The notes beneath the pieces were generated by a model that ran no database searches, was not told the origin of the DNA, and was given only the letters and a program-made list of their open reading frames with translations. A stretch of 64,000 nucleotides of DNA from Lachnospiraceae bacterium. Its GTDB lineage: Bacteria > Bacillota > Clostridia > Lachnospirales > Lachnospiraceae. A program made the translations under genes and the position numbers. The stretch covers positions 77,707 through 141,706 of the forward strand of contig JAFWLM010000015.1 of the NCBI GenBank assembly GCA_017511045.1, written 5' to 3'. Of this stretch, positions 3,685 to 53,770 are shown one piece after another (within the stretch, counting starts at the first letter, position 1; every line of letters begins with the position of its first letter).

Positions 3685-3734
3685 AGCGTTGTCTCCTTTT
3701 CTTTTATTCCGGATCCGCACCATGCGGATCGTTA

Positions 3735-4355
3735 TTAGTGTTCTCCTCTGCGGTCGGCAATATCTTTTGCCTGCCTGGAAGGCGGGGTCAGAAATCTCCG
3801 GCTTTCCCCTGATATGATCACACGGTCTTTCGAATCTGTGATCATTCCAATCTCCGACAGTCCTTCTTCTGCTTCCATTTCTTCCGGAAGTGCCACCAGC
3901 CAGCTTCCTTCAGAACTGACTTCATACGGGTTTTCTTTTAATAATTCCAGGATCTCGACGATATGCTGGTCGACCGGGATCGCTTCTAGATCGATCTCAC
4001 AGCCGATGTTCTGAGGAATATCCTGTTTAGAAGGAGCCTGCTCTTTTATTTCCTCCCGCAGCTCCGACAGGTCCTCACACATCGCCCAAAGCGCTGCAAA
4101 GATCCCCCCATCTCTTATTTCACGGATATAAACTGTTCCGTCAAAATAATAGTTCTTTCTACTATAAGGTTTCTTTGTATTTTTTTCAATACATAAATTA
4201 TCCAAAAAATCTGCAGGATCAGGCCGATCTTCTGACAGATTTTCAAATTCGCGCACAAAAAACTTCGGAAAACGCGTCTCAATATCCTCCCGGTTTTCCT
4301 GATACAGCTTCTTTGCTGTCTCATATGCTATTAATCCGGTAACGTAAATCTTCAT
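3735..4355 (-). CDS. hypothetical protein (weak resemblance to an AIR-synthase-related C-terminal domain)
   Basis: 206 aa ORF tightly packed between neighbouring genes, with its stop 11 nt before the next start. The function call is not secure. Confidence 0.4.
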   Translation of the reverse strand: MKIYVTGLIAYETAKKLYQENREDIETRFPKFFVREFENLSEDRPDPADFLDNLCIEKNTKKPYSRKNYYFDGTVYIREIRDGGIFAALWAMCEDLSELREEIKEQAPSKQDIPQNIGCEIDLEAIPVDQHIVEILELLKENPYEVSSEGSWLVALPEEMEAEEGLSEIGMITDSKDRVIISGESRRFLTPPSRQAKDIADRRGEH

Positions 4356-4988
4356 TTATTTTCCTGCAGATGGGCAATATGGTGCAAGGAAGCACTCTGC
4401 GCACTTCGGGCTCCGCGCCGTACAGATCGTCCTGCCATGTGCAATGATCTGAATGTTCCAAAGGATCCAGTGATCTTTCGGGAGCGTCTTTTCCAGATCG
4501 TATTCCACTTTTGTCGGATCTTCGTTTTTTGTCAGTCCGAGCTTTCTCGAAATCCTTCCGACATGCGTATCAACAACGATACTTGGGATATCATAGATAT
4601 TTCCACGAATCACATTCGCCGTCTTCCTTCCGACTCCCGGAAGCGACGTCAGCGCATCGATATCTGAAGGAACTTCACCGCCATATTCCTTTACCAGCTT
4701 ATCTGCGCAGGCGATAATATTCTTTGCTTTGTTATGATAAAACCCCGTAGAATGAATATCCTGTTCGAGTTCTTTCAGGTCGGCATTCGCAAAGTCTTCC
4801 AGACTCTGATATTTCCGGAACAGGTCTTTTGTCACGATATTGACTCTGGCATCTGTGCACTGCGCGCTCAAAATCGTCGCGATCAGAAGATGCCAGGCAT
4901 TATCATAATCCAGCCAGCATTTTTTTTGCACACTGTAATGTTCGTCCAAAAGATCTAAGATCTTCTGCACCCGTTCTGCTTTTTTCAT
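4356..4988 (-). CDS. nth: endonuclease III
   Basis: HhH-GPD motif LPGVGRKTANV and a C-terminal 4Fe-4S loop CTARSPKCAECFLAPYC. Confidence 0.9.
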   Translation of the reverse strand: MKKAERVQKILDLLDEHYSVQKKCWLDYDNAWHLLIATILSAQCTDARVNIVTKDLFRKYQSLEDFANADLKELEQDIHSTGFYHNKAKNIIACADKLVKEYGGEVPSDIDALTSLPGVGRKTANVIRGNIYDIPSIVVDTHVGRISRKLGLTKNEDPTKVEYDLEKTLPKDHWILWNIQIIAHGRTICTARSPKCAECFLAPYCPSAGK

Positions 4989-7900
4989 GCCCGTTCCTCC
5001 TCTTGGTTTTGAATCGTCTCTGCATCCAGGATCAGTCCGGAAAGACCGTCAAAGAACTCCAACAAAACTTCCTGCATCTGATCGATCGTCTTTGGCGGGT
5101 TTGGCGGGCGGAAGACAAAATACGGCTGGGAGTCTGCAACAAAGCGCAGGATCTGTTCGGAGGTTCCCCTCCTGCCACCGGCTCCAACATAGCCCGCCGT
5201 CCGGTTTTTCAGTACTTCCGTCTTCTTTCCGTCATTGTATTCCTTCAAAAATCCGAACATCTTATAGGTATCGATCGGTGCTGTTTTAAACATACTGATC
5301 TTATACTCACTGCGGCTTCCTGAGATCTCCGTAATATAGACCGCATGTGCTTTCGCCTTCAGCAGCGCAACCTTCAGCAGGTTTTCCGTCACCTCCGGGA
5401 TCTCCCCGAAGCGGTCTTCCAGCTCATTTCGGATATCCTCCAGATCTTCAGCGGTCGTGATTGCAGAGATCTTTTTATACATGTTCAGTTTTTCAAATTC
5501 ATTTGTGATGTAAGTTGCCGGTATGAATCCGTCGATCTTTAAGTCCACCGTCGTTTCAAAATCCGCCAGAACACGTTCCCCTTTCAGGAAGGAGACCGCC
5601 TCATTGAGCATCTTGCAGTACAGCTCATATCCGACTGCTTCCATATGTCCGCTCTGCTCTGCTCCGAGAACATTGCCTGCTCCGCGGATCTCAAGATCCC
5701 GCATTGCGATCTTGATGCCGCTTCCGAGGTCTGAGAACTCCCGGATCGCTTTGAGTCTCTTCTCAGCGACTTCCCGGATCAGCTTATCTTTCCGATACAT
5801 TAAGAACGCATAAGCAGTTCGGTTCGTTCTTCCGACACGTCCGCGCAGCTGATAGAGCTGGCTTAACCCAAAGCGGTCCGCATCATGAATGATGATCGTA
5901 TTGACATTGGAAATATCCATTCCGGTCTCAATAATTGTTGTCGAAACAAGTACATCAATATCGCCGGCAGTGAAATCCTCCATGATGCCTTCGAGCGTTT
6001 TCGCCGCCATCTTTCCATGCGCATACTGGACATTCAGATCCGGTACCATGTTCTGGATCTTTGCCGCAATCGTATCAATACTATTCGTTAAATTATACAC
6101 ATAATAAACCTGGCCGCCGCGTCTTGCCTCCCTGAGGATCGCTTCGCGGACCGCATCGTCCGAATACTCCATAACATAAGTCTGAATCGGTACGCGGTCG
6201 ACCGGCGGCTCTGTTAAAAGGCTCATATCGCGGATGCCGGAAAGAGACATATGGAGCGTCCTCGGAATCGGTGTCGCGCTCAGAGTCAGTACATCAACAT
6301 TCTTCCTAAGCTGCTTGATCTTTTCCTTATGAGAAACGCCGAAGCGCTGCTCCTCATCCACGATCAGAAGTCCTAAATCCTTAAATTCAATATCTTTACT
6401 CAGCAGACGGTGCGTGCCGACCACGATATCAACCATTCCCTTTTTGATTTCCGAAACAGTCTCCTTCTGCTGCTTTCCGGATGAAAAACGCGACAGCTGT
6501 GCAACTGTGATCGGATAGCCTCTCATGCGGTTTACGATCGTATTGTAATGCTGCTGAGTTAAAATCGTTGTCGGACAAAGAAACGCGACCTGCTTTCCTT
6601 CCTGAACTGCTTTAAAAGCTGCCCGCAGCGCGACCTCTGTTTTTCCGAACCCGACGTCTCCACAGATCAGCCGGTCCATGATCTTCGTTGATTCCATATC
6701 CGCTTTGACCGCGTCAACCGCACGAAGCTGGTCATCCGTTTCCTCAAACTCAAACTGCTCTTCAAACTCCTGCTGCCAGACAGTATCCGGCATATATTTA
6801 TAGCCCTGACTGTTCTGCCGCTCCGCATAAAGTGCGACCAGTTCCGCCGCAATGTCTTTCACGGACGCGCGGACACGCGACTTTGTATTGTTCCATTCTT
6901 TACTTCCGAGTTTATGGATCTTCGGCTTTGCACCATCACTGCCGGCATATTTCTGGATCTTATCAAACTGCGTTGCCAGAACATAAAGACTGGAGTTTCC
7001 GGCATAGTCGATCTTCATATAATCTTTTTCCGTACCATCGACCGTGATACGCTCAATACCGCGATAAACACCAACACCATGCTGTTCATGTACGACATAA
7101 TCTCCAATGTTAAGATCTGTAAAATCCTTGATCGGATCCCCGGAAAAGCGTTTCCGTTTTCTCTTCTTTGCTCTGCGGACGCCGAAAATATCCACTTCGG
7201 AAATAATGGCAAACTTCTGATCCGGATATGCAAAACCTGTACGGACGGCTCCGACCTGTACATTCGGTTCTACACCCTTTTCCTGAAGTTCCTTGATCAG
7301 GCGTTCTGCACGAAGATTACTTGCGGTAAATAAAGTGACGTTCCATCCGTCCCTCCGGTACTGTTTCAGATCGTTGGCAAGGTCCTCAAAGCGTCCGTTA
7401 TAGGACGGAATATTACGGGCATTTATATGGACCGTCGTCTTCGCAGGAAGCTCTTCATATCCGCTTCCGAGCATGGAGAACTGCAGACAGTTCCTCTTCT
7501 GAAACTCCGAAAGCAAACGTTCTTCAAAAACCGCCTCGGAAAAGATCTTTGCCGGCTCATCTAATACGAACAGTGTCTTCTCATCAAAATAAACGAAGAG
7601 ATCCACCTGGTCAGTAAGCCCGTCTGCAGCTTTCTCTCCTTCTTCGGAAGGCTGCTCGCTGACTGACGGAAAGATCGTAAATTCCTCTACACTCTCAATG
7701 GAGCGCTGGCTCTCCACATCGAAGAGCTTAATGGACTCCACCTCATCGCCCCAAAGGTCGATACGGTACGGCGCGCTCTCCGTATATGGGAAAACATCAA
7801 TGATATTTCCACGGATGGAGAATTCGCCATGGGAACCCACTTGGGATTCATTTTCATATCCGAAAGAGACCAGCTTTTCTGCAAGCTCTTCTCCGTTCAG

Positions 7901-8308
7901 TTCCTCTCCCTGACGGATCGTGATCAGCTCCTTCTGTATCTCATCAAAACTTTGAAACTGTTCTGCAAACGCTTCGAGAGTCGTGATGACTGTCAGACGC
8001 TCGCCTGCAAACAGACGCTTTACGACTTCCAGCCGCTGTTCAGAAAGATAACTGCCACGGATATCCGCCTTTTCGAAAAGCGGATCTTTCGCAGGATAGT
8101 AAACAGCGGCCTTATCAAAAGCCGTATAGTTATTCAGGATCTCGAGGGCCTTCTGCTCATCAAAAGTAACGATGACTTTGCTGCCAAAGCCATCGCCCAA
8201 GTTAAAAAGCAGGTGCTCCATCTGGCTCGGAACGCAGCCGTTCACCAGAACCGGCCCGTCCTTTGCTGCTGTTGTTATTTGATTTATGTAGCCTGTGATA
8301 TCGTTCAT
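4985..8308 (-). CDS. mfd: transcription-repair coupling factor
   Basis: 1107 aa with an SF2 helicase core (GDVGFGKTEVA, DEEQRFG), a CarD-like RNAP-interaction region and a TRCF C-terminal domain. It lies in the classic pth-mfd neighbourhood. Confidence 0.95.
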   Translation of the reverse strand: MNDITGYINQITTAAKDGPVLVNGCVPSQMEHLLFNLGDGFGSKVIVTFDEQKALEILNNYTAFDKAAVYYPAKDPLFEKADIRGSYLSEQRLEVVKRLFAGERLTVITTLEAFAEQFQSFDEIQKELITIRQGEELNGEELAEKLVSFGYENESQVGSHGEFSIRGNIIDVFPYTESAPYRIDLWGDEVESIKLFDVESQRSIESVEEFTIFPSVSEQPSEEGEKAADGLTDQVDLFVYFDEKTLFVLDEPAKIFSEAVFEERLLSEFQKRNCLQFSMLGSGYEELPAKTTVHINARNIPSYNGRFEDLANDLKQYRRDGWNVTLFTASNLRAERLIKELQEKGVEPNVQVGAVRTGFAYPDQKFAIISEVDIFGVRRAKKRKRKRFSGDPIKDFTDLNIGDYVVHEQHGVGVYRGIERITVDGTEKDYMKIDYAGNSSLYVLATQFDKIQKYAGSDGAKPKIHKLGSKEWNNTKSRVRASVKDIAAELVALYAERQNSQGYKYMPDTVWQQEFEEQFEFEETDDQLRAVDAVKADMESTKIMDRLICGDVGFGKTEVALRAAFKAVQEGKQVAFLCPTTILTQQHYNTIVNRMRGYPITVAQLSRFSSGKQQKETVSEIKKGMVDIVVGTHRLLSKDIEFKDLGLLIVDEEQRFGVSHKEKIKQLRKNVDVLTLSATPIPRTLHMSLSGIRDMSLLTEPPVDRVPIQTYVMEYSDDAVREAILREARRGGQVYYVYNLTNSIDTIAAKIQNMVPDLNVQYAHGKMAAKTLEGIMEDFTAGDIDVLVSTTIIETGMDISNVNTIIIHDADRFGLSQLYQLRGRVGRTNRTAYAFLMYRKDKLIREVAEKRLKAIREFSDLGSGIKIAMRDLEIRGAGNVLGAEQSGHMEAVGYELYCKMLNEAVSFLKGERVLADFETTVDLKIDGFIPATYITNEFEKLNMYKKISAITTAEDLEDIRNELEDRFGEIPEVTENLLKVALLKAKAHAVYITEISGSRSEYKISMFKTAPIDTYKMFGFLKEYNDGKKTEVLKNRTAGYVGAGGRRGTSEQILRFVADSQPYFVFRPPNPPKTIDQMQEVLLEFFDGLSGLILDAETIQNQEEERA

Positions 8309-14611: not shown

Positions 14612-14782
14612 TGTAAAGAACGTCTTGCACTGCTTCGTGCTTCGCACTCCCGCAGTGCGAAAAACATTCCGTACTCCGGGCTGCCCGCCCTGCGTACTCC
14701 ATGTTTTTCAGCTCTCGCAATCCCTGCGTGTCTGTCCGCATAAATGCGTCCATCCACACAGTCATTGCTCAAGACTTTCTTT
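14612..14782 (-). repeat. GC-rich intergenic repeat, copy A (sense on the minus strand)
   Basis: The minus-strand core CATGGAGTACGCAGGGCGGGCAGCCCGGAGTACGGAATG ... GTGCGAAGCACGAAGC aligns by eye with copy C (53885-53980, plus strand) and copy B (51879-52010, minus strand). Confidence 0.5.
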
Positions 14783-14813
14783 ACAGAATAATAGCGACAA
14801 GCCTTCTTGTCGC
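14783..14813 (-). terminator. intrinsic terminator after spoVG
   Basis: Minus strand GCGACAAG-AAGG-CUUGUCGC followed by a U-rich tail UAUUAUUCU. Confidence 0.55.
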
Positions 14814-14844: not shown

Positions 14845-15126
14845 TTAGAATTCGGTGCTTGATGGTTCCTTAGCAGCTTCTTCTTCGTATCTTTCCAGGA
14901 TGATACGCTGGATGCGGTCGCGTGTTTCTGAGTTGATTGGATGAGCAATATCGCGATACTCGCCGTCCTGAGTTTTTCTGCTAGGCATAGCAATGAATAA
15001 GCCTTTTTCACCTTCGATGACTTTGATGTCATGAACGACGAATTCTGAATCCAGGGTAATGGAAACAACGGCTTTCATCTTACCTTCCTTAGCGACCATT
15101 CGTACTCTAACATCAGTGATCTCCAT
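14845..15126 (-). CDS. spoVG: septation protein SpoVG
   Basis: [11 protein letters not shown] ... KAVVSITLD ... [11 protein letters not shown] is the canonical SpoVG N-terminus. Confidence 0.95.
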
Positions 15127-15272
15127 ATTCAGTTACTCCTTTGTTCTAAAAAAAATACAGAACGGCAGTTAGATTATATCATACACGACCAAAAAATCAA
15201 TAAAATTAACTTCATGTTTTTATCAATTTAAAGCATTAAAATGCTACGAAAAGTTAAAGCCTGTGCGCAGAA

Positions 15273-21346: not shown

Positions 21347-21785
21347 AGCAAACAAAAGGAACGCCCGGAGAACAGCACTGATCTATCTTCTCACCTCCAT
21401 CTTCTGTGCAGTGTTTGGAGTCATTTATGAGATATTCAGTCACGGCGTGTATTCCGCTTTTATGCTCTTTGCGTTTGCCTTTCCGCTTGTTGGAGGTGCG
21501 CTCCCTTTTTTCTTACTATATTTAGCGGAGCGCAGCAGAGCAAAGACGGAAAGACGCAGGCCCTATTCCGGCTTATATCCGGCAATTCCGGCCAGAAGCT
21601 TCTACCACTGTGGAATCATCACCCTTACGCTTGGCAGCATCATGAACGGAATACTGGATATCTACGGAACAACAAACAGATTGCTTGTGATCTACTGGTT
21701 TTTAGGAGCTGTGCTTCTTCTTACGGCAATCAGTATTCATTTGCTCTCCCTGCTGCTTGGCAAGCGATGTCGTCTTTATCGTTGA
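21321..21785 (+). CDS. hypothetical integral membrane protein
   Basis: Four predicted TM helices. The start is uncertain (GTG 21321 or TTG 21327), and it overlaps the end of the preceding gene. Confidence 0.4.
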   Translation: MTLYTSVIKANKRNARRTALIYLLTSIFCAVFGVIYEIFSHGVYSAFMLFAFAFPLVGGALPFFLLYLAERSRAKTERRRPYSGLYPAIPARSFYHCGIITLTLGSIMNGILDIYGTTNRLLVIYWFLGAVLLLTAISIHLLSLLLGKRCRLYR

Positions 21786-21836
21786 CATAAAAACAAGATT
21801 GTTATATAAGCCCCTTGTCCGCCAAAACGGACAGAA

Positions 21837-21877
21837 CAAAGCCCGGAAAATCCTACAGATTTCCGGGCTTTGTTTTT
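21837..21877 (+). terminator. intrinsic terminator between convergent genes
   Basis: CAAAGCCCGGAAA ... TTTCCGGGCTTTG followed by TTTTT. Confidence 0.65.
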
Positions 21878-21906
21878 CAGCAATATATCAAAGAAATGAA
21901 AAAGAA

Positions 21907-22665
21907 CTACAAAATGTTTTCAAACTTTTCAAGAAGCATCTGACGTGTCAGGGACTTCTTTTCTTCTCCGCAGACATCATAGCAGATCGTACCCTCATTC
22001 ATCATGATCAGGCGGTCGCCATGATTAATTGCGTCCTGCATGTTATGCGTGATCATCAGCGTTGTCAGATTGTTGTTTGCAACGATCTGGTCTGAGATCT
22101 CAAGCACCTTCTTTGCAGTCGCAGGATCGAGGGCTGCGGTATGCTCATCTAAAAGAAGCAGTTTCGGTTTCTGAAGAGCTGCCATCAAAAGCGTTAACGC
22201 CTGTCGCTGTCCTCCGGAGAGAAGGCCGACCTTTGTCGTCATACGATCTTCAAGGCCCAATCCCAGAATCGCCAGTTTTTCCCGGAACTCTTCTTTTTCC
22301 GCTTTGGTAACGCCCCACTTCAGAGTACGTTTTTGTCCTCTGCGTTTGGCAAGTGCAAGATTCTCTTCGATCTGCATGCTGGCTGCCGTTCCCATCATCG
22401 GGTCCTGGAACACGCGGCCGATATAAGGTGCTCTTTTATATTCCGGAAGGCCGGTAATGTTTTCACCATCCAGGATAACTGCTCCGTCATCGATCGGCCA
22501 GAGTCCCGCGATAGCATTTAAGATCGTGGATTTTCCGGCACCGTTTCCACCGATAACAGTTACAAATTCACCCGGCTTGATATGAAGACTCACATCGATC
22601 AGCGCTTTCCGTTCATTGATTGTTCCCGGATTGAAGGTTTTAGAAACATGCTCTACGTATAACAT
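21907..22665 (-). CDS. ABC transporter ATP-binding protein (partner of the ABC_sub_bind system)
   Basis: Walker A GGNGAGKST, signature LSGGQRQALTL, Walker B LLLDEHTAALD. Confidence 0.9.
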   Translation of the reverse strand: MLYVEHVSKTFNPGTINERKALIDVSLHIKPGEFVTVIGGNGAGKSTILNAIAGLWPIDDGAVILDGENITGLPEYKRAPYIGRVFQDPMMGTAASMQIEENLALAKRRGQKRTLKWGVTKAEKEEFREKLAILGLGLEDRMTTKVGLLSGGQRQALTLLMAALQKPKLLLLDEHTAALDPATAKKVLEISDQIVANNNLTTLMITHNMQDAINHGDRLIMMNEGTICYDVCGEEKKSLTRQMLLEKFENIL

Positions 22666-23654
22666 TACTGTACCTCCTTTCCGCTCTTAAAACTGTTCTT
22701 AACCGCTTCCACATACGGCAGGCTTCGTTTCCCTGCCCAGCTGAAAGAGTTTTTCGCTTTGCCCCGGAAATAAGGAACAGCAAGGAAGATCGTAACGATC
22801 AACGCAGTAAACAGCTTCAGATCATTCGGATCAAGTTTCAGCCAGAGAACGATGATCATGACCAGATAGTAGATGATGCCGCCTAGTACGACAAAGGCCA
22901 TCCTGATCCAGAAAGTACATCCCTTCTTGAAGATCGCATCACATAAGATCTCGCCGATAATAATTGCTGCAAGACCGATAACGATCGCGCCACGGCCCAT
23001 ATTGACATCAGAGAATCCCTGATACTGAGCCATCAGACCGCCTGCAAAGGCAACGACTCCGTTGGAGATCGCAAGACCGATGATCTTCATATTAGAAGTA
23101 TTGATGCCGAGCGCCGTGCTCATTTCGCCGTTATTACCTGTTGCACGAAGCGCAGACCCCTGTTCTGTACCGAAATACCAGTACAGGATCGCAATAATGA
23201 TCGCCGCAAAGATCACACCTTCCAAGATTGCGATCGGGATGTTCCGCATACTGATCACCAGCTTGTACATCGCCGGATTGATCGACTGGTTTGCAGCCAT
23301 GCCCATGATCCGCAAGTTAATGGAATACAGCGCAAACTGCGTTAAGATTCCGGCAAGGATCGCCGGGATTCCGAGTTTCGCATGCAGGAGTCCGGTAATG
23401 ATTCCCGCGATGATCCCCGCAAGCAGCGCGCAGATCGTAGCCACCCAGGTCGGAACGCCGGCCAAAGACAGCATAACAGCGACCGCACCTCCGGTCGCAA
23501 AACTTCCATCAACAGATAAGTCGGCAATATCAAGCACCCGGAAGGTAATAAAGACCCCGAGTGCCATAATGCCCCAGATGAGTCCCTGGGAAATACCGCC
23601 AGGGACTCGTCCGATTAAATTCACAAAACTTAAACCTGCAAGTAACATATTCAT
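22665..23654 (-). CDS. ABC transporter permease
   Basis: 329 aa polytopic membrane protein. Its stop overlaps the ATPase start by 1 nt. Confidence 0.85.
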   Translation of the reverse strand: MNMLLAGLSFVNLIGRVPGGISQGLIWGIMALGVFITFRVLDIADLSVDGSFATGGAVAVMLSLAGVPTWVATICALLAGIIAGIITGLLHAKLGIPAILAGILTQFALYSINLRIMGMAANQSINPAMYKLVISMRNIPIAILEGVIFAAIIIAILYWYFGTEQGSALRATGNNGEMSTALGINTSNMKIIGLAISNGVVAFAGGLMAQYQGFSDVNMGRGAIVIGLAAIIIGEILCDAIFKKGCTFWIRMAFVVLGGIIYYLVMIIVLWLKLDPNDLKLFTALIVTIFLAVPYFRGKAKNSFSWAGKRSLPYVEAVKNSFKSGKEVQ

Positions 23655-23678
23655 GATAATAATACCTGGTTTTCTTTA

Positions 23679-24701
23679 TTATTCTTCTGTTTCAATAGCA
23701 ACATAGTCATCCGGAATTGTCAGTCCGTAGAACTCTGCGTTAGCAGTATTGACTTTCTTTGTTGTGTTAGGGAAGTATTCGATCGGCATTGTGCTGATAT
23801 CTGCTTCGCCTTTCAGGATCTTAGCTGCCATCTGTCCGGTGATCCGGCCAAGTTCATAATAATCAATGGTCAGAGTAACGATTCCACATCCTGTGCAAAG
23901 GCCTTCTTCACCTGCTACGATCGGAGTTTTAGCCTGCTTAGCAACTGCGTCGATAGCATCTGTGCAGCTTGCTGCGGTATTGTCGGTCGGGATGTAAAGA
24001 ACATCGTTTCCGTCACATGCTTCCTGGGTAACCAGTGAAACATCATTGGAATCTGAGAATGTGTATCTGTTAACGGTCATTCCCATATCTGTCAGATATT
24101 TTTCCATCTCATCTGCCTGATATACAGAGTTTGCTTCACTGGAGCAGTACATGATACCTACTGTTTTTGCATCCGGGAAGATCTCCTTAACCATTGCTGC
24201 CTGCTGATCCAGCGGTGCAAGGTCGGATGTTCCGGAAATGTTTCCGCCGACTGTTCCGTCAAAATTATCAATGTTCAGAGCAGCTCCGTATGTGGAGATG
24301 GATGTTCCGAGGATCGGAATTGTTGCAGTAGAAGCTGCAGCTGCCTGAAGTGCCGGAGTTGCATTTGCCATGATGAGGTCAACGTTGTCAGATGCAAAAC
24401 CATTGCAGATCGTTGCACAGGTTGCGCTGTCGCCGGATGCGTTCTGCTCATCAAATTCCACTACGCCTTCACCCATTTCCTCAGTAAGTGCATCACGGAA
24501 TCCCTGAGTTGCGCTGTCAAGTGCCGGGTGCTGTACCAGCTGGCAGATACCGACCGTAAAGGTCTGTCCTGCTGCGCCGGAATCTGCTGCGCTTCCTGCA
24601 GGAGCGTCAGATCCGCCGGAGCTTCCGCAAGCAGCAAGTGCACCGACGATAAGGGCACAAGTTGCAAGTAATGCCATCAGTTTCATCATTTTCTTCTTCA
24701 T
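23679..24701 (-). CDS. ABC transporter substrate-binding lipoprotein, ABC_sub_bind family
   Basis: Lipobox LAACGSSGG. FTVGICQLVQHPALD ... is typical of the ABC_sub_bind (COG2984-like) family. AGGAGG SD. Confidence 0.8.
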   Translation of the reverse strand: MKKKMMKLMALLATCALIVGALAACGSSGGSDAPAGSAADSGAAGQTFTVGICQLVQHPALDSATQGFRDALTEEMGEGVVEFDEQNASGDSATCATICNGFASDNVDLIMANATPALQAAAASTATIPILGTSISTYGAALNIDNFDGTVGGNISGTSDLAPLDQQAAMVKEIFPDAKTVGIMYCSSEANSVYQADEMEKYLTDMGMTVNRYTFSDSNDVSLVTQEACDGNDVLYIPTDNTAASCTDAIDAVAKQAKTPIVAGEEGLCTGCGIVTLTIDYYELGRITGQMAAKILKGEADISTMPIEYFPNTTKKVNTANAEFYGLTIPDDYVAIETEE

Positions 24702-24785
24702 TGGTTTTCCTCCTGTTTGAACAGCTTCTGTTCTTTTTTTGAAATGTATATAAAGACTACCGATACCGGACCGTCCTTATTGCAA

Positions 24786-24815
24786 TGAAAAAGGCTGCAC
24801 GTTGTTCGTGCAGCC
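24786..24815 (-). terminator. attenuator terminator in the leader of the ABC_sub_bind operon
   Basis: Minus strand GGCUGCACG-AACAA-CGUGCAGCC followed by UUUUU, 85 nt upstream of the SBP start codon. Confidence 0.65.
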
Positions 24816-24840
24816 TGCAAAGTCATTCTACTTAGCACAA

Positions 24841-24930
24841 TTACGCATGGCACAAACAACGATCTCCCTTGGAGCCGCTAAAATAAAACCAATATGCGTA
24901 ATAAAAGTTATTTAAGTTTTTTGCCTTCAT
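24841..24930 (-). CDS. candidate attenuation leader peptide MKAKNLNNFYYAYWFYFSGSKGDRCLCHA
   Basis: Own translation: 29 codons, with 8 of 9 consecutive residues aromatic. The ATG lies 8 nt after a -10 hexamer, so the message would be leaderless or nearly so. The ORF overlaps the alternative RNA pairings. Confidence 0.5.
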   Translation of the reverse strand: MKAKNLNNFYYAYWFYFSGSKGDRCLCHA

Positions 24931-24938
24931 AGTTCGGT

Positions 24939-24967
24939 AGTTTAACGCTTTAAAGTGTAAATGTCAA
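24939..24967 (-). promoter_or_regulatory. promoter TTGACA-17 nt-TAAACT driving the leader
   Basis: On the minus strand the -35 TTGACA is at 24967-24962, the spacer is 17 nt, and the -10 TAAACT is at 24944-24939. Confidence 0.55.
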
Positions 24968-25018
24968 CACTGAATTCCTAAAATGTTGTTTTTTTGACTT
25001 CGTTCGCACCCTTTATTT

Positions 25019-25768
25019 CTAGTTTTCCCCCAAAAAATCTGCAATCGTCTTTACAGCAATATCGGAATCCTCTGTCCAAAGGTGATCAGCGTTTGGAGCG
25101 GAAACCGTCTTGAGATTATTGATGTAGTTTTTATAGTCCAGCGTCATCTCCCTCGGAACATATTCATCCTTTTCACCGTAGACAAGCAATGTTTCCCGGT
25201 CATAATCTTTCAGATGTTCATAAACTTCGACCTTCTGCGCGCTCAGGAAATATGGCCTTCCAATGTGGAACAGCTCTGTCTCCATGAGTTCCGGAGGATC
25301 TGCAGGGTCATAAAGATTGCCAAAGAAAAAGCCGCTCTCAGCCCTCATCCGGATATCTGCAGCCGGAGATAAGAGTACCAGTTTTTCGATCCGGTCTCTG
25401 TGGTCTACTGCCAGATGGCTGGCAATGATACCGCCTAAGGAATACCCGATCAGATAGATTCTGCTGACAAAGTCCAGTGATATGGCATATTGATAAAACG
25501 CCTCCGCATCGGCTCTTAATCCTTCCACCGTCATATCAGCCATATCGCCTTCACTTCTTCCATGGCAGCTGAAGTCAAAACGGAGGGTTGCGATCCCCTG
25601 ATCCCAAAGAGCTCTCGTCAGATCATAAAATGGATGCTGGCGGCTGTTGGTATTAAAGCCATGCATAATAATTGCCAGCGGGATCTTTTCTCCTTCTTTG
25701 ATCTCCGGGGTTTCCAGCAGCCCGTATAATGTCAGATTGTCGCGTTTTAAACTTAGTTTTTCTTTCAT
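25019..25768 (-). CDS. alpha/beta hydrolase
   Basis: Nucleophile elbow GYSLGG and a C-terminal His region. Confidence 0.75.
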   Translation of the reverse strand: MKEKLSLKRDNLTLYGLLETPEIKEGEKIPLAIIMHGFNTNSRQHPFYDLTRALWDQGIATLRFDFSCHGRSEGDMADMTVEGLRADAEAFYQYAISLDFVSRIYLIGYSLGGIIASHLAVDHRDRIEKLVLLSPAADIRMRAESGFFFGNLYDPADPPELMETELFHIGRPYFLSAQKVEVYEHLKDYDRETLLVYGEKDEYVPREMTLDYKNYINNLKTVSAPNADHLWTEDSDIAVKTIADFLGEN

Positions 25769-25837
25769 GTTTCTGTCCTGTAAAAAATGTTTCTTACTAT
25801 ATAAATACTAATGATCTGTGCAGTCAGGTCCCGTCCT

Positions 25838-26725
25838 TCAGTTTGCCGATGCCAGATATGCCTTCATGTGATTTAATACGTGCTTCTTATCAGCGCTCCA
25901 CATCGGCGCAACAAGGATCTTCTTATCCCCATCCCCGGTCAGGCGATGGATCACGATATCCTTTGGAATGTGTTTCAAAAGATCCGCAACGAGTTCAATA
26001 TACTCCTCTTCTTCTATGACCGGAACTTTTCCGGCCAGATATTCTTTTTCCAGATCAGTGCCTTTCAATATATGAAGCAGCTGGAGTTTGATTCCTGTCG
26101 CGCCACTTTTGCAGACATAATCCACTGTTGCTTCCATATCTGCTTTTGTCTCTCCCGGAAGACCCAGGATCACGTGTGTGATAACTTCAATATTTCGATC
26201 CCGCAGTTTCTTCACCGCTTCGTCATAGACCTCAAGCGGATACCCTCTTCGGATATACTCCGCCGATCTCTCATGGATCGTCTGAAGTCCCAGTTCCACC
26301 CAAACCGGCTTTATCCGGTTCAGCCCGTCCAAAAGTTGAAGGACTTCCCCAGGAAGACAGTCAGGCCGTGTTGCAAGGGAGAGCGCCACAATATCGGGAT
26401 GATTCACCGCCTGCATGTAAAGACTTCTCAGTTTTTCCACTGGGGCATAAGTGTTCGTGTATGCCTGAAAATACGCAATGTACTTTCCGTCTTTGATTTT
26501 TGATGCGACCAGCTGTTTTCCTTCCTCGATCTGTTCCGTAATACTTTTTCCGGGATCACCGGCAAACTCGCCGCTGCCGCCTGCAGAACAAAAAACACAG
26601 CCCCTCGTATCGATCTTGCCGTCCCTGTTCGGGCAGGTAAAACCGCCGTTTACTGCAATCTTATAAACCTTACATCCAAAGGTATCTTTCAAATATTGAT
26701 TTAAAGAATAATAATGAATGCCCAT
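25838..26725 (-). CDS. radical SAM protein, TIGR01212 (YhcC-like) family
   Basis: FTCPNRDGKIDTRGCVFCS cluster motif and family-typical length. Start set at MGIHYYSL. Confidence 0.8.
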   Translation of the reverse strand: MGIHYYSLNQYLKDTFGCKVYKIAVNGGFTCPNRDGKIDTRGCVFCSAGGSGEFAGDPGKSITEQIEEGKQLVASKIKDGKYIAYFQAYTNTYAPVEKLRSLYMQAVNHPDIVALSLATRPDCLPGEVLQLLDGLNRIKPVWVELGLQTIHERSAEYIRRGYPLEVYDEAVKKLRDRNIEVITHVILGLPGETKADMEATVDYVCKSGATGIKLQLLHILKGTDLEKEYLAGKVPVIEEEEYIELVADLLKHIPKDIVIHRLTGDGDKKILVAPMWSADKKHVLNHMKAYLASAN

Positions 26726-26827
26726 GATTATTTGCTCCGAAACGAGTCTACGGGCATGGAAAAGAAAAGTCAAGATAATACAGCAGTCACAAGATGCGTC
26801 ACAAAAACGCCTTTTGAGGGGTAATAG

Positions 26828-31162: not shown

Positions 31163-31184
31163 CTCTGCAATTGAACAACGAAAT

Positions 31185-31345
31185 TAAAGGATAGAGGCGC
31201 AGTTGTCATAAGTAGTTGATGCGTGAAAGCTGAGCAAGGCGATGCTGATACGAAAGGGGCCGCTGCCGAAGGAAAGGGGATTGCATCCCGATCCTGGGCA
31301 AAGGGAGAACATCTCTTTGACTGTCGCATTTGCGGGGAGCTATGG
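31185..31345 (+). promoter_or_regulatory. lysine riboswitch (L-box) aptamer
   Basis: The conserved L-box blocks occur in order: AGAGGCGC, AGTA, GAAAGGGG, GCCGAAGG, CCTGGG, CTGTC, GGGGAGCTA. It lies directly upstream of lysA. Confidence 0.85.
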
Positions 31346-31373
31346 ATTAATGGACGATTATTTTAGTTCTGTT

Positions 31374-52864: not shown

Positions 52865-53770
52865 TCAGTCTGCAACTGCGCATGCAAGAAGCAGGGAATC
52901 AAATTTTTCTTCAGCTGAAGAACCACGGGAGTTGATGACGATCGGGCATTTTGCTCCGATAACAACACCTGCCATTTTTCCGTTACCGAACTGCAGCATA
53001 GATTTGTGAGCAACGTTTCCGACCTGGATATTCGGAACAAGGATAACGTCTGCATCACCTGCAACCGGGCTGTCATATTTTTTGCGTTTTGCGCTGTCTG
53101 CATTAACAGCAAGGTCTAAGGAGATCGGTCCTTCTACGATGCAGTCTTTGATGATGCCTTCTTCATTCATTTTCTTAAGCTCTGCAGCATCAACTGTTTC
53201 CGGCATCTTCGGATTCACTTTTTCTACAGCAGCTACACATGCGATCTTCGGGTTTTCAATACCCAGCTTTTTATAGCAGTCAACCGCATTTTTGATGATG
53301 CCGGCCTTCTGCTCAACGGTCGGATAAGTCATCATTCCGCCGTCAGTTACAACAAGCAGTTTATGATATGCAGGAAGCTCGGTGAAAGCAACGATAGACA
53401 TAACGCCGCCAAGACCGATTCCTGTTTCTTTATTAACGACAGGTTTTAAAACATCTTTTGTCTCTAAAAGACCTTTTAAAATAACGTTTGCTCTGCCTTC
53501 TTTTACCAGTTCAACTGCAATCTGTCCGCACTCTTCCGGAGTTTCTGCATTGATGATCTCATAATCAGCTGGATTCTTGCCAAGCTCTGTCAGAACCTTT
53601 TTTACTTCCTCTTCTTTGTCGATCAGGATCGCTTTGATCAGGCCCATGCCTTCTGCTTCAAAAACAGCCTCTAATACGTGGTCGTCTGCTGCACCCGGAA
53701 CTGCAACGCTTTTTACTACTTTTTTCCCTTTTACGATCTCAAGGAAATCCTGCATACTTGTTAATGCCAT
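52865..53770 (-). CDS. phosphate butyryltransferase / phosphotransacylase family protein
   Basis: 301 aa with a Ptb-like N-terminus (VAVPGAADDHVLEAV) and the PTA_PTB fold. No butyrate kinase gene is adjacent. Confidence 0.75.
   Translation of the reverse strand: MALTSMQDFLEIVKGKKVVKSVAVPGAADDHVLEAVFEAEGMGLIKAILIDKEEEVKKVLTELGKNPADYEIINAETPEECGQIAVELVKEGRANVILKGLLETKDVLKPVVNKETGIGLGGVMSIVAFTELPAYHKLLVVTDGGMMTYPTVEQKAGIIKNAVDCYKKLGIENPKIACVAAVEKVNPKMPETVDAAELKKMNEEGIIKDCIVEGPISLDLAVNADSAKRKKYDSPVAGDADVILVPNIQVGNVAHKSMLQFGNGKMAGVVIGAKCPIVINSRGSSAEEKFDSLLLACAVAD

Follow-up and report, generated by a model that had tools for sequence, protein, structure and literature searches.

The window analysed here is a 64,000-nucleotide (nt) stretch of Lachnospiraceae bacterium DNA (contig JAFWLM010000015.1, positions 77,707 to 141,706). 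On its minus strand, to which the coordinates below refer unless the plus strand is named, a leader region precedes the genes of an ABC importer of the tyrosine type. This leader is probably a ribosome-mediated (leader-peptide) attenuator, which would tie expression of the importer to how much charged tRNA-Tyr and tRNA-Phe is available. By its sequence it has the parts of a leader-peptide attenuator: a short open reading frame (ORF) with its start, a codon cluster, a terminator, an antiterminator that excludes the terminator, and the appropriate geometry. The transcription start, the translation of the ORF, the coupling of ribosome and RNA polymerase, and the response to amino acids we infer.

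The leader ORF (24930–24841) consists of 29 codons and UAA, MKAKNLNNFYYAYWFYFSGSKGDRCLCHA, with its ATG at 24930 and its stop codon at 24843–24841. The ORF has no Shine-Dalgarno sequence (SD), and its ATG lies 8 nt past the −10 hexamer of the promoter, a spacing from which the ORF is apparently leaderless. The regulatory run is UUU UAU UAC GCA UAU UGG UUU UAU UUU (FYYAYWFYF; 24906–24880), and eight of its nine codons are for Tyr, Phe or Trp. It is the sole 8-of-9 aromatic stretch in the six frames of the 64 kb, and eight aromatic codons were reached by none of 20,000 shuffles of the leader. The second-best run in the window, AFYYFFPFYD (seven of nine; 53708–53737, plus strand), was rejected as a chance by-product because it lies antisense inside a gene, the 301-residue ORF at 52865–53770 (minus strand).

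The leader RNA folds with an energy of −47.1 kcal/mol, versus −34.3 ± 3.3 kcal/mol for dinucleotide shuffles (z = −3.87; none of 200 as good). In the minimum-free-energy fold, the 5′ strand of helix P1 (24902–24895, with an extension at 24891–24888) is located within the aromatic codons, and the 3′ strand with its extension (24851–24840) includes the stop codon. The core of this helix is the 9-bp complementarity between AUUACGCAU (24902–24894) and AUGCGUAAU (24848–24840). A second hairpin of the same fold, H2 (24880–24857), has UCGUUG as its 3′ strand. These are the first six bases, the 5′ half, of the antiterminator strand CGUUGUUUGUGC (24861–24850), which is therefore sequestered. When free, CGUUGUUUGUGC can form 12 pairs, one of them G-U, with GCACGAACAACG (24811–24800). 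This partner is the 5′ arm and loop of the intrinsic terminator GGCUGCACG-AACAA-CGUGCAGCC-U5 (24816–24788; stem 24816–24792, with 10 pairs, seven of them G-C), so that antiterminator and terminator are mutually exclusive.

In the proposed mechanism, transcription would start at or a few nucleotides from the ATG at 24930, and a ribosome would initiate on the leaderless or near-leaderless message. With ample Tyr and Phe, the ribosome would reach the UAA and cover CGUUGUUUGUGC; the terminator would then form and transcription would end before the binding-protein gene. With charged tRNA-Tyr or tRNA-Phe scarce, the ribosome would stall within 24906–24880, melting P1 and the 5′ strand of H2. It would leave CGUUGUUUGUGC free about 20 nt downstream, to pair with 24811–24800 as that segment emerges, and the polymerase would read through. 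If no ribosome is present, P1 and H2 would sequester the antiterminator in the window leader, making termination the default state as well.

The geometry of this scheme was assessed by partition-function folding of ten leaders in the presence of a masking ribosome, with the A site at every position, four footprint offsets, and the covered nucleotides kept single-stranded. The calculation was repeated on transcripts ending before the 3′ arm of the terminator; both series are equilibrium proxies. For the full-length window leader, the terminator probability is 0.96 for the free RNA and for a ribosome on codons 2–13. It falls to 0.02–0.03 only with the A site on codons 15–17, for all four offsets, and is at least 0.85 again from codon 18 to the stop. 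H2 matters here. In the full-length model, antitermination is predicted only when the ribosome stalls at one of the last three or four codons for aromatic residues. In the shortened transcript, ribosomes on codons 8–19 allow the antiterminator to form; it does not form in free RNA, nor when a ribosome is early in the ORF or anywhere between codon 21 and the stop. The ten leaders agree in that the antiterminator is permitted while a ribosome occupies the aromatic run and is abolished once the ribosome has come within about eight codons of the stop.

Orthologous loci were collected from a scan of one genome per species (13 loci) and from exact-protein look-ups (12 more places). Seven of them, all on other Lachnospiraceae-type contigs (L001–L004 and L015–L017), have leaders that align over the full length with that of the window. 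These score 117–164 bits with a covariance model, which confirms only the alignment because the model was built from the same sequences. Among these eight leaders the ORF has 29 or 31 codons, and the ATG is invariant, exactly 8 nt past TAAACT in every case. The frame is open in all eight, the other two frames having stops in nearly all of them, and the three inferred insertions or deletions are all multiples of 3. The N-terminal third of the peptide drifts (MKAKNLNN, MKSESSVNK, MEAEMLHKNS, MNTKFRNTS, MKPEKYGKK), and the runs keep four to eight Tyr/Phe codons despite synonymous TAT/TAC and TTT/TTC changes. The upstream neighbours vary by locus (decarboxylase, rubrerythrin, ThiF, FolC, methyltransferase), and the importer is the sole constant neighbour.

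The paired segments are conserved together with the frame. Helix P1 is paired in 90.6% of cells across the eight leaders, and its pairing is maintained through G-U as the stop codon changes among UAA, UGA and UAG. The base of the H2 helix is conserved, and its apical register varies (CCC-GAGA-GGG in most relatives). The terminator is paired in 97.2% of cells, with two pairs changed on both sides. For the off-state structure as a whole (P1 with its extension, H2 and the terminator) the figure is 87.5%, with six pairs changed on both sides. Its covariation score was reached by none of 500 shuffles, and the pairing falls to 25–42% when the partners are slid. Paired cells make up 99% of the antiterminator, which shows one compensatory change from U-A to G-C (in L015) and one G-U variant; its covariation support is modest, 62 of 500 shuffles doing equally well, because most of its columns are invariant.

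Two diverged leaders, L020 (MNKRAFGFYFRFYFFYHNDR) and L021 (MRNIIRSDYFRFFNYAFYFYFFDKD), share with the window the promoter, the terminator and the antiterminator core, the pairing of UUGUUUGUG with CACAAACAA. With the covariance model L020 has an E value of 7e-4, and that of L021, 3.7, is not significant. Both ORFs have an SD and richer runs (FGFYFRFYFFY and DYFRFFNYAFYFYFF, respectively), and both stop upstream of the antiterminator, before the conserved UUGUUUGUG. The nucleotides that encode the C-terminal RCLC(H/F/Y/C)A of the other peptides are conserved beyond the end of these two ORFs, and for this reason they appear to be constrained as RNA rather than as peptide. Other matches of the covariance model, in L009 (~7967–8193), were discarded, being no more than a bidirectional terminator of the usual kind where a gene ends.

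Leaders that cannot be aligned with that of the window are also rich in Tyr and Phe upstream of orthologous binding-protein genes, and these too are followed by terminators. There are at least four of them, namely L008 (MNRSFGIAYFYYYFPMRKKQG, with AYFYYYF), L022 (...SFYYF...LYYRAY...), and two leaders of one locus, L012a (MKTVLTYNANYYYYYYSKR, with NYYYYYYS, in which six consecutive Tyr are the only aromatic residues) and the Phe-rich L012b (MKTALFNNAYFYFFFFYFKSKMF, with AYFYFFFFYF). An SD is present for the ORFs of L020, L012a, L012b, L008 and L005. The L012 locus has tandem binding-protein genes, each with its own paralogous leader, terminator and promoter (3716–3928 and 4964–5188), L012b standing ahead of the second. 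The two leaders have 81% mean column identity and differ mainly by TAC to TTC in the run, as would be expected if codon identity is the determinant of specificity. Altogether, Tyr/Phe runs are found in 15 leaders of orthologous operons. As a control, the regions upstream of ORFs of at least 200 residues in the window and the loci were searched for mini-ORFs with at least six aromatic codons in nine. Such a mini-ORF is present in 11 of the 150 regions; 10 of the 11 belong to binding-protein genes, and the eleventh is inside a membrane-protein gene.

At two Erysipelotrichaceae orthologues, L010 (611–842, plus strand) and L013 (3643–3871, plus strand), a T-box stands ahead of the binding-protein gene. 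They score 113.7 and 120.6 bits, respectively, and their specifier, GAA-UAC-A, is that of Tyr. A T-box in L011 (571–761, minus strand) has a GCU specifier; it lies on the other strand and belongs to the divergent gene. Only the promoter is present in L018 and L019, and no attenuator was found in L006, L007, L009, L011, L023 or L026. The original prediction, which was made from the sequence of the window, had proposed a trp/phe-type layout in which a stall frees the antiterminator, and had called for a survey of related operons. Both the folding geometry and the synteny favour that layout. None of the seven homologous leaders has lost the mini-ORF, its frame or the Tyr/Phe run; diverged and unrelated leaders have such a run as well, and Tyr T-boxes take the place of the leader peptide at the two Erysipelotrichaceae loci. 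Loss of the ORF with retention of the hairpins had been named as evidence to the contrary; where the ORF is lost, in L024 and L025, the antiterminator is lost with it.

The importer operon begins with an SD, AGGAGG (24714–24709), and a substrate-binding lipoprotein of 340 residues (24701–23679; PF04392, ABC_sub_bind, E = 6e-59), followed by an ABC permease (PF02653, 23654–22665) and an ABC ATPase (PF00005, 22665–21907). The closest solved relative of the binding protein is CD0873 of C. difficile (6HNI, E = 1.8e-49), which binds tyrosine. In that structure, Glu263 bonds to the hydroxyl group of the ligand and its position is Ala in Phe and Trp binders, and Tyr279 excludes Trp and its position is Gln in a Trp binder (PMC6816091). 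The equivalent residues here, E265 and Y281, are invariant in 22 of 22 orthologues. By its aligned residues the pocket is of the CD0873 tyrosine-binding type, with both the Glu and the Tyr; the Glu could also suit histidine. The importer is predicted to carry tyrosine and perhaps phenylalanine too.

The codons of the leaders point to the same amino acids. In seven of the eight homologous leaders no aromatic amino acid has more codons than Tyr, and Phe predominates in L015 and in the diverged or unrelated L020, L021, L012b and L005. Judged by sequence, the three independent readouts (codons, T-box specifier and pocket) agree on Tyr, with Phe as a second input in most leaders. A Phe-type pocket, with Ala in place of the Glu, was looked for as a partner of the Phe-rich L012b leader, and both L012 proteins keep the Glu and the Tyr. 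A signal from Trp is unsupported, because UGG occurs in only four of the eight leaders, the T-box specifier is UAC, and the binding protein falls below the equivalog cutoff of TrpX (NCBIfam NF041285; 246.7 versus 390 bits). In addition, the position of Gln284 of SP1069, which admits the indole ring, is Tyr (Y281) in all orthologues. The same evidence speaks against the tryptophan importer that the original prediction had suggested; of the aromatic sensing it had proposed, the Tyr and Phe components are supported and the Trp component is not.

The promoter ahead of the leader has TTGACA at −35 (24967–24962) and TAAACT at −10 (24944–24939), separated by a 17-nt spacer. In a consensus scan it matches 10 of 12 positions, the joint best score within 21500–26000. 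TTGAC[AT] is kept at −35 in the window, L001–L004, L015–L017 and the diverged L020 and L021, and by inspection also in L018, L019, L022 and L024. The −10 hexamer is invariant in the eight homologous leaders, and the 8 nt between it and the ATG at 24930 read ACCGAACT in the window. The spacer and the −10 hexamer are covered by a palindrome, CACTTTA-AAGCGT-TAAACTA (CACTTTAAAGCGTTAAACTA; 24957–24938), which is conserved in the window and in the promoters of L001–L004 and L015–L024, across loci with differing flanks. The coordinates that had been given for the promoter, the 29-codon ORF without SD, the 8-of-9 aromatic run, the 9-bp and 12-nt complementarities and the terminator were all found to be accurate. 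The earlier account of the element omitted H2 and the palindrome inside the promoter.

The palindrome is a candidate operator of a repressor of the TrpR/HisR family. It has two mismatches to the 20-bp HisR consensus cacTTTAnnnnnnTAAAgtg (PMC9413887) and is similar to the hisR site of B. crossotus, tgctttaaagtgttaaactg, in the list of the same study; the exact sequence is absent from the site lists there. HisR is a His-responsive repressor of the TrpR family, and its regulon in Lachnospiraceae reportedly includes PF04392-family transporters named hisXYZ* (PMC9413887). A search with E. coli TrpR as query and with a motif pattern found no TrpR/HisR-family gene in the window or any locus. The palindrome hints at additional control by a protein, perhaps one that responds to histidine. 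It may be the site of a HisR paralogue whose effector is a different one, it may place the operon under both His and Tyr/Phe, or the importer may take a broader range of substrates. As a separate observation, a site at 15224–15243 (CAATTTAAAGCATTAAAATG) resembles the operator, with two mismatches to the HisR consensus, and is located about 100 nt upstream of a 93-residue ORF (14845–15126, minus strand) that was read as spoVG-like. Operator-like matches with up to three mismatches are about as numerous in the window as chance predicts; a looser degenerate pattern gives eight matches versus 2.35 expected.

Control could in principle lie entirely with this palindrome and its repressor, the terminator being a constitutive damper and the mini-ORF untranslated or without effect. 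No element is more widely conserved than the palindrome, which also fits the HisR consensus; L018 and L019, which have no attenuator, keep only the promoter and the palindrome, and L024 and L025 retain these and the terminator with no ORF. Control by the repressor only would, however, leave unexplained the antiterminator complementarity, the in-frame conservation and the recurrence of Tyr/Phe runs. The two mechanisms are moreover not exclusive, and dual control, as at the trp operon of E. coli, is the simpler reading. We regard repressor-only control as improbable.

A terminator/antiterminator switch could also be run by another agent than the ribosome, for example a riboswitch for a small molecule, a protein that recognizes UAU/UAC/UUU triplets in the RNA, or a tRNA, with the ORF incidental. 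The hairpins are conserved and partly covarying, the aromatic codons overlap a strand of P1, and T-boxes, TRAP and riboswitches are the norm in Firmicutes, with orthologues of this operon under T-boxes. Against this, the leader matches no Rfam family at the gathering score. Its only match at E ≤ 10 is to Phe_leader (RF01859), itself a leader-peptide family, and at 17.4 bits (E = 2.4) versus a gathering score of 55 the leader is not a member and the likeness is in layout only. The T-box family (RF00230) has no match in the window at gathering or at E ≤ 10. The leader has no conserved aptamer-like core of several helices; its frame, ATG and promoter spacing are kept as the N-terminal codons drift, with insertions and deletions in frame; and all that the unrelated leaders have in common is a start signal, a terminator and the kind of codons they contain. 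A non-ribosomal switch is for these reasons very improbable. It is hardly credible that the ORF is selected as a functional small peptide (for example a micropeptide of the membrane, or a precursor from which a modified peptide is made): the RCLCxA terminus is conserved and a radical-SAM gene is located about 1 kb upstream (25838–26773), but the L020 and L021 peptides end before the RCLC-encoding nucleotides, the upstream neighbours differ at every locus with the importer alone constant, and the peptides vary in length and sequence among lineages except in their Tyr/Phe content.

Several observations weigh against the leader being an attenuator that works by ribosome stalling. The leaderless start is read solely from the promoter-to-ATG spacing, and all the sequences are metagenome-assembled or metagenomic contigs studied in silico. 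The codons UAU UAC GCA UAU double as the 5′ strand of P1, so their conservation could be partly structural; in L015 several P1 pairs are lost, yet the Tyr codons are kept there. L015 and L017 have weak runs, with four aromatic codons in a nine-codon stretch. In the folding calculations, six of the ten leaders favour the antiterminator at equilibrium with no ribosome, and the full-length model of L002 keeps the terminator at every ribosome position. In L024 and L025 (~1046–1157), whose sequence is identical in two samples, the promoter, operator and terminator are kept, the terminator directly after the promoter, and the ORF, P1, H2 and antiterminator are absent; the arrangement resembles a deletion, one that would be expected to keep the operon permanently off. 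A HisR-like operator in the promoter is a poor fit to a purely Tyr/Phe regulon. Finally, in species with "runaway transcription", B. subtilis among them, RNA polymerase reportedly runs ahead of the ribosomes (PMC13323073, PMC7858274), which, if it applies here, would make a decision timed by a ribosome hard.

Two further hairpins are found between the terminator and the importer genes. The first (24778–24742), which is followed by AUAUA(C/A)AUU, has by inspection covarying stems in seven of the eight homologous leaders. The second (24733–24719) is directly 5′ of the SD; all the relatives have a hairpin at this position, with no conservation of its sequence. It is possibly a stabilizer of the 5′ end of the mRNA, and on the plus strand it reads as a terminator-like hairpin followed by T7. 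Elsewhere in the window, a Clostridiales-1 RNA (14614–14783, minus strand; 80.4 bits) and a lysine riboswitch (31184–31350, plus strand; 76.2 bits) score above the Rfam gathering scores.

The overall arrangement is similar to those of the pheA (pheL) and pheST attenuators of E. coli. In each, a short ORF has an aromatic run whose codons are part of a protector hairpin, an antiterminator overlaps the intrinsic terminator, and the stop codon is at a position where a terminating ribosome would mask the antiterminator. The codons in those leaders are for Phe alone, whereas here they are mainly for Tyr, with Phe. The target here is an importer, in Clostridia, and the ORF has no SD; the E. coli leaders precede a biosynthetic or a tRNA-synthetase gene.

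Leader ORFs of actinobacteria of the aroR kind are often leaderless. In C. glutamicum, the aroR leader peptide (Phe-Tyr-Phe) upstream of aroF is reported to act by ribosome stalling (Neshat et al. 2014, via PMC11802643) and to respond to Phe and not to Tyr (PMC11802643). As proposed here, mixed Phe/Tyr codons of a leader peptide govern a gene of aromatic amino-acid metabolism. The aroR leader differs in being actinobacterial and in having a biosynthetic target and three regulatory codons; the family described here has four to 11 aromatic codons, in L012a of Tyr only. Leaderless polycysteine short ORFs of mycobacteria reportedly act as cysteine-responsive attenuators of operonic gene expression (bioRxiv 10.1101/834739). 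They have in common with the leader described here a short ORF, in the present case apparently leaderless, that is rich in codons for one amino acid and would attenuate downstream genes, and differ in being actinobacterial and sensing Cys.

Leader-peptide attenuators have also been described in Firmicutes. Those for His are predicted in the B. cereus group, Peptostreptococcaceae and Erysipelotrichales, for his operons and the hisS/hisZ paralogues of B. cereus (PMC9413887, PMC2965389), and S. aureus ilv-leu has a leucine-rich attenuator peptide (PMC5794164). In the available portion of PMC9413887, the table of attenuator operons gives only his operons, and the discussion names the his operon "and/or" a hisZ*YX transporter. 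Like the leaders described here, these peptides alternate phylogenetically with T-boxes at the same target genes, and also with a TrpR-family repressor, for which the present loci have a candidate operator. They differ in sensing His or Leu and in having biosynthetic targets, and leaderless leader ORFs are not mentioned in the portions of these reports consulted. Leader-peptide attenuation had been called uncommon in Firmicutes, where T-box or TRAP control was said to dominate; T-boxes are indeed known at orthologues, but attenuation of this kind was already described in the phylum (PMC9413887, PMC2965389, PMC5794164), so that the taxon alone is less novel than had been implied.

The streptococcal trpXYZ importer is under the control of a T-box (PMC9382623). 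It and the operons with Tyr T-boxes have the same transporter family as the window (PF04392, PF02653 and an ATPase), and the logic, in which a terminator is opened by sensing of tRNA charging, would be the same. The sensor in the window would be the translating ribosome, unlike the T-box systems, where it is uncharged tRNA on the RNA, and the binding protein is of the Tyr type and not of the Trp type. In the original prediction, leader-peptide control was not known to have been described for this transporter family. The literature search, which took in few of the subscription journals, agrees, having found no description of such control or of a Tyr-rich leader peptide.

For the family as a whole, the chances are about even that Tyr/Phe leader-peptide attenuators, here on a leaderless AUG, arose or diversified repeatedly upstream of one tyrosine importer, in Lachnospiraceae, Oscillospiraceae-like bacteria and Erysipelotrichia, that they interchange with Tyr T-boxes, and that they are stacked on a TrpR-family operator. 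The mechanism would then govern uptake and not biosynthesis, in Clostridia of the gut and rumen, for which T-boxes would be the expected device. Tyrosine would be added to the few amino acids for which sensing by a leader peptide is known or predicted; the closest example found is aroR. The C. difficile member of this importer family matters for p-cresol production and colonisation, and the concurrence of the leader, the orthologous T-boxes and the pocket residues provides a substrate prediction for a widespread, poorly annotated family. If the mechanism holds, the coupling of ribosome and polymerase in these Clostridia would be tight enough to time a termination decision. With its leaderless start and its requirement for coupling, the leader would be a compact test case for coupling in Firmicutes, and leaders of this kind may serve as natural reporters for whether "runaway transcription" is general in the phylum.

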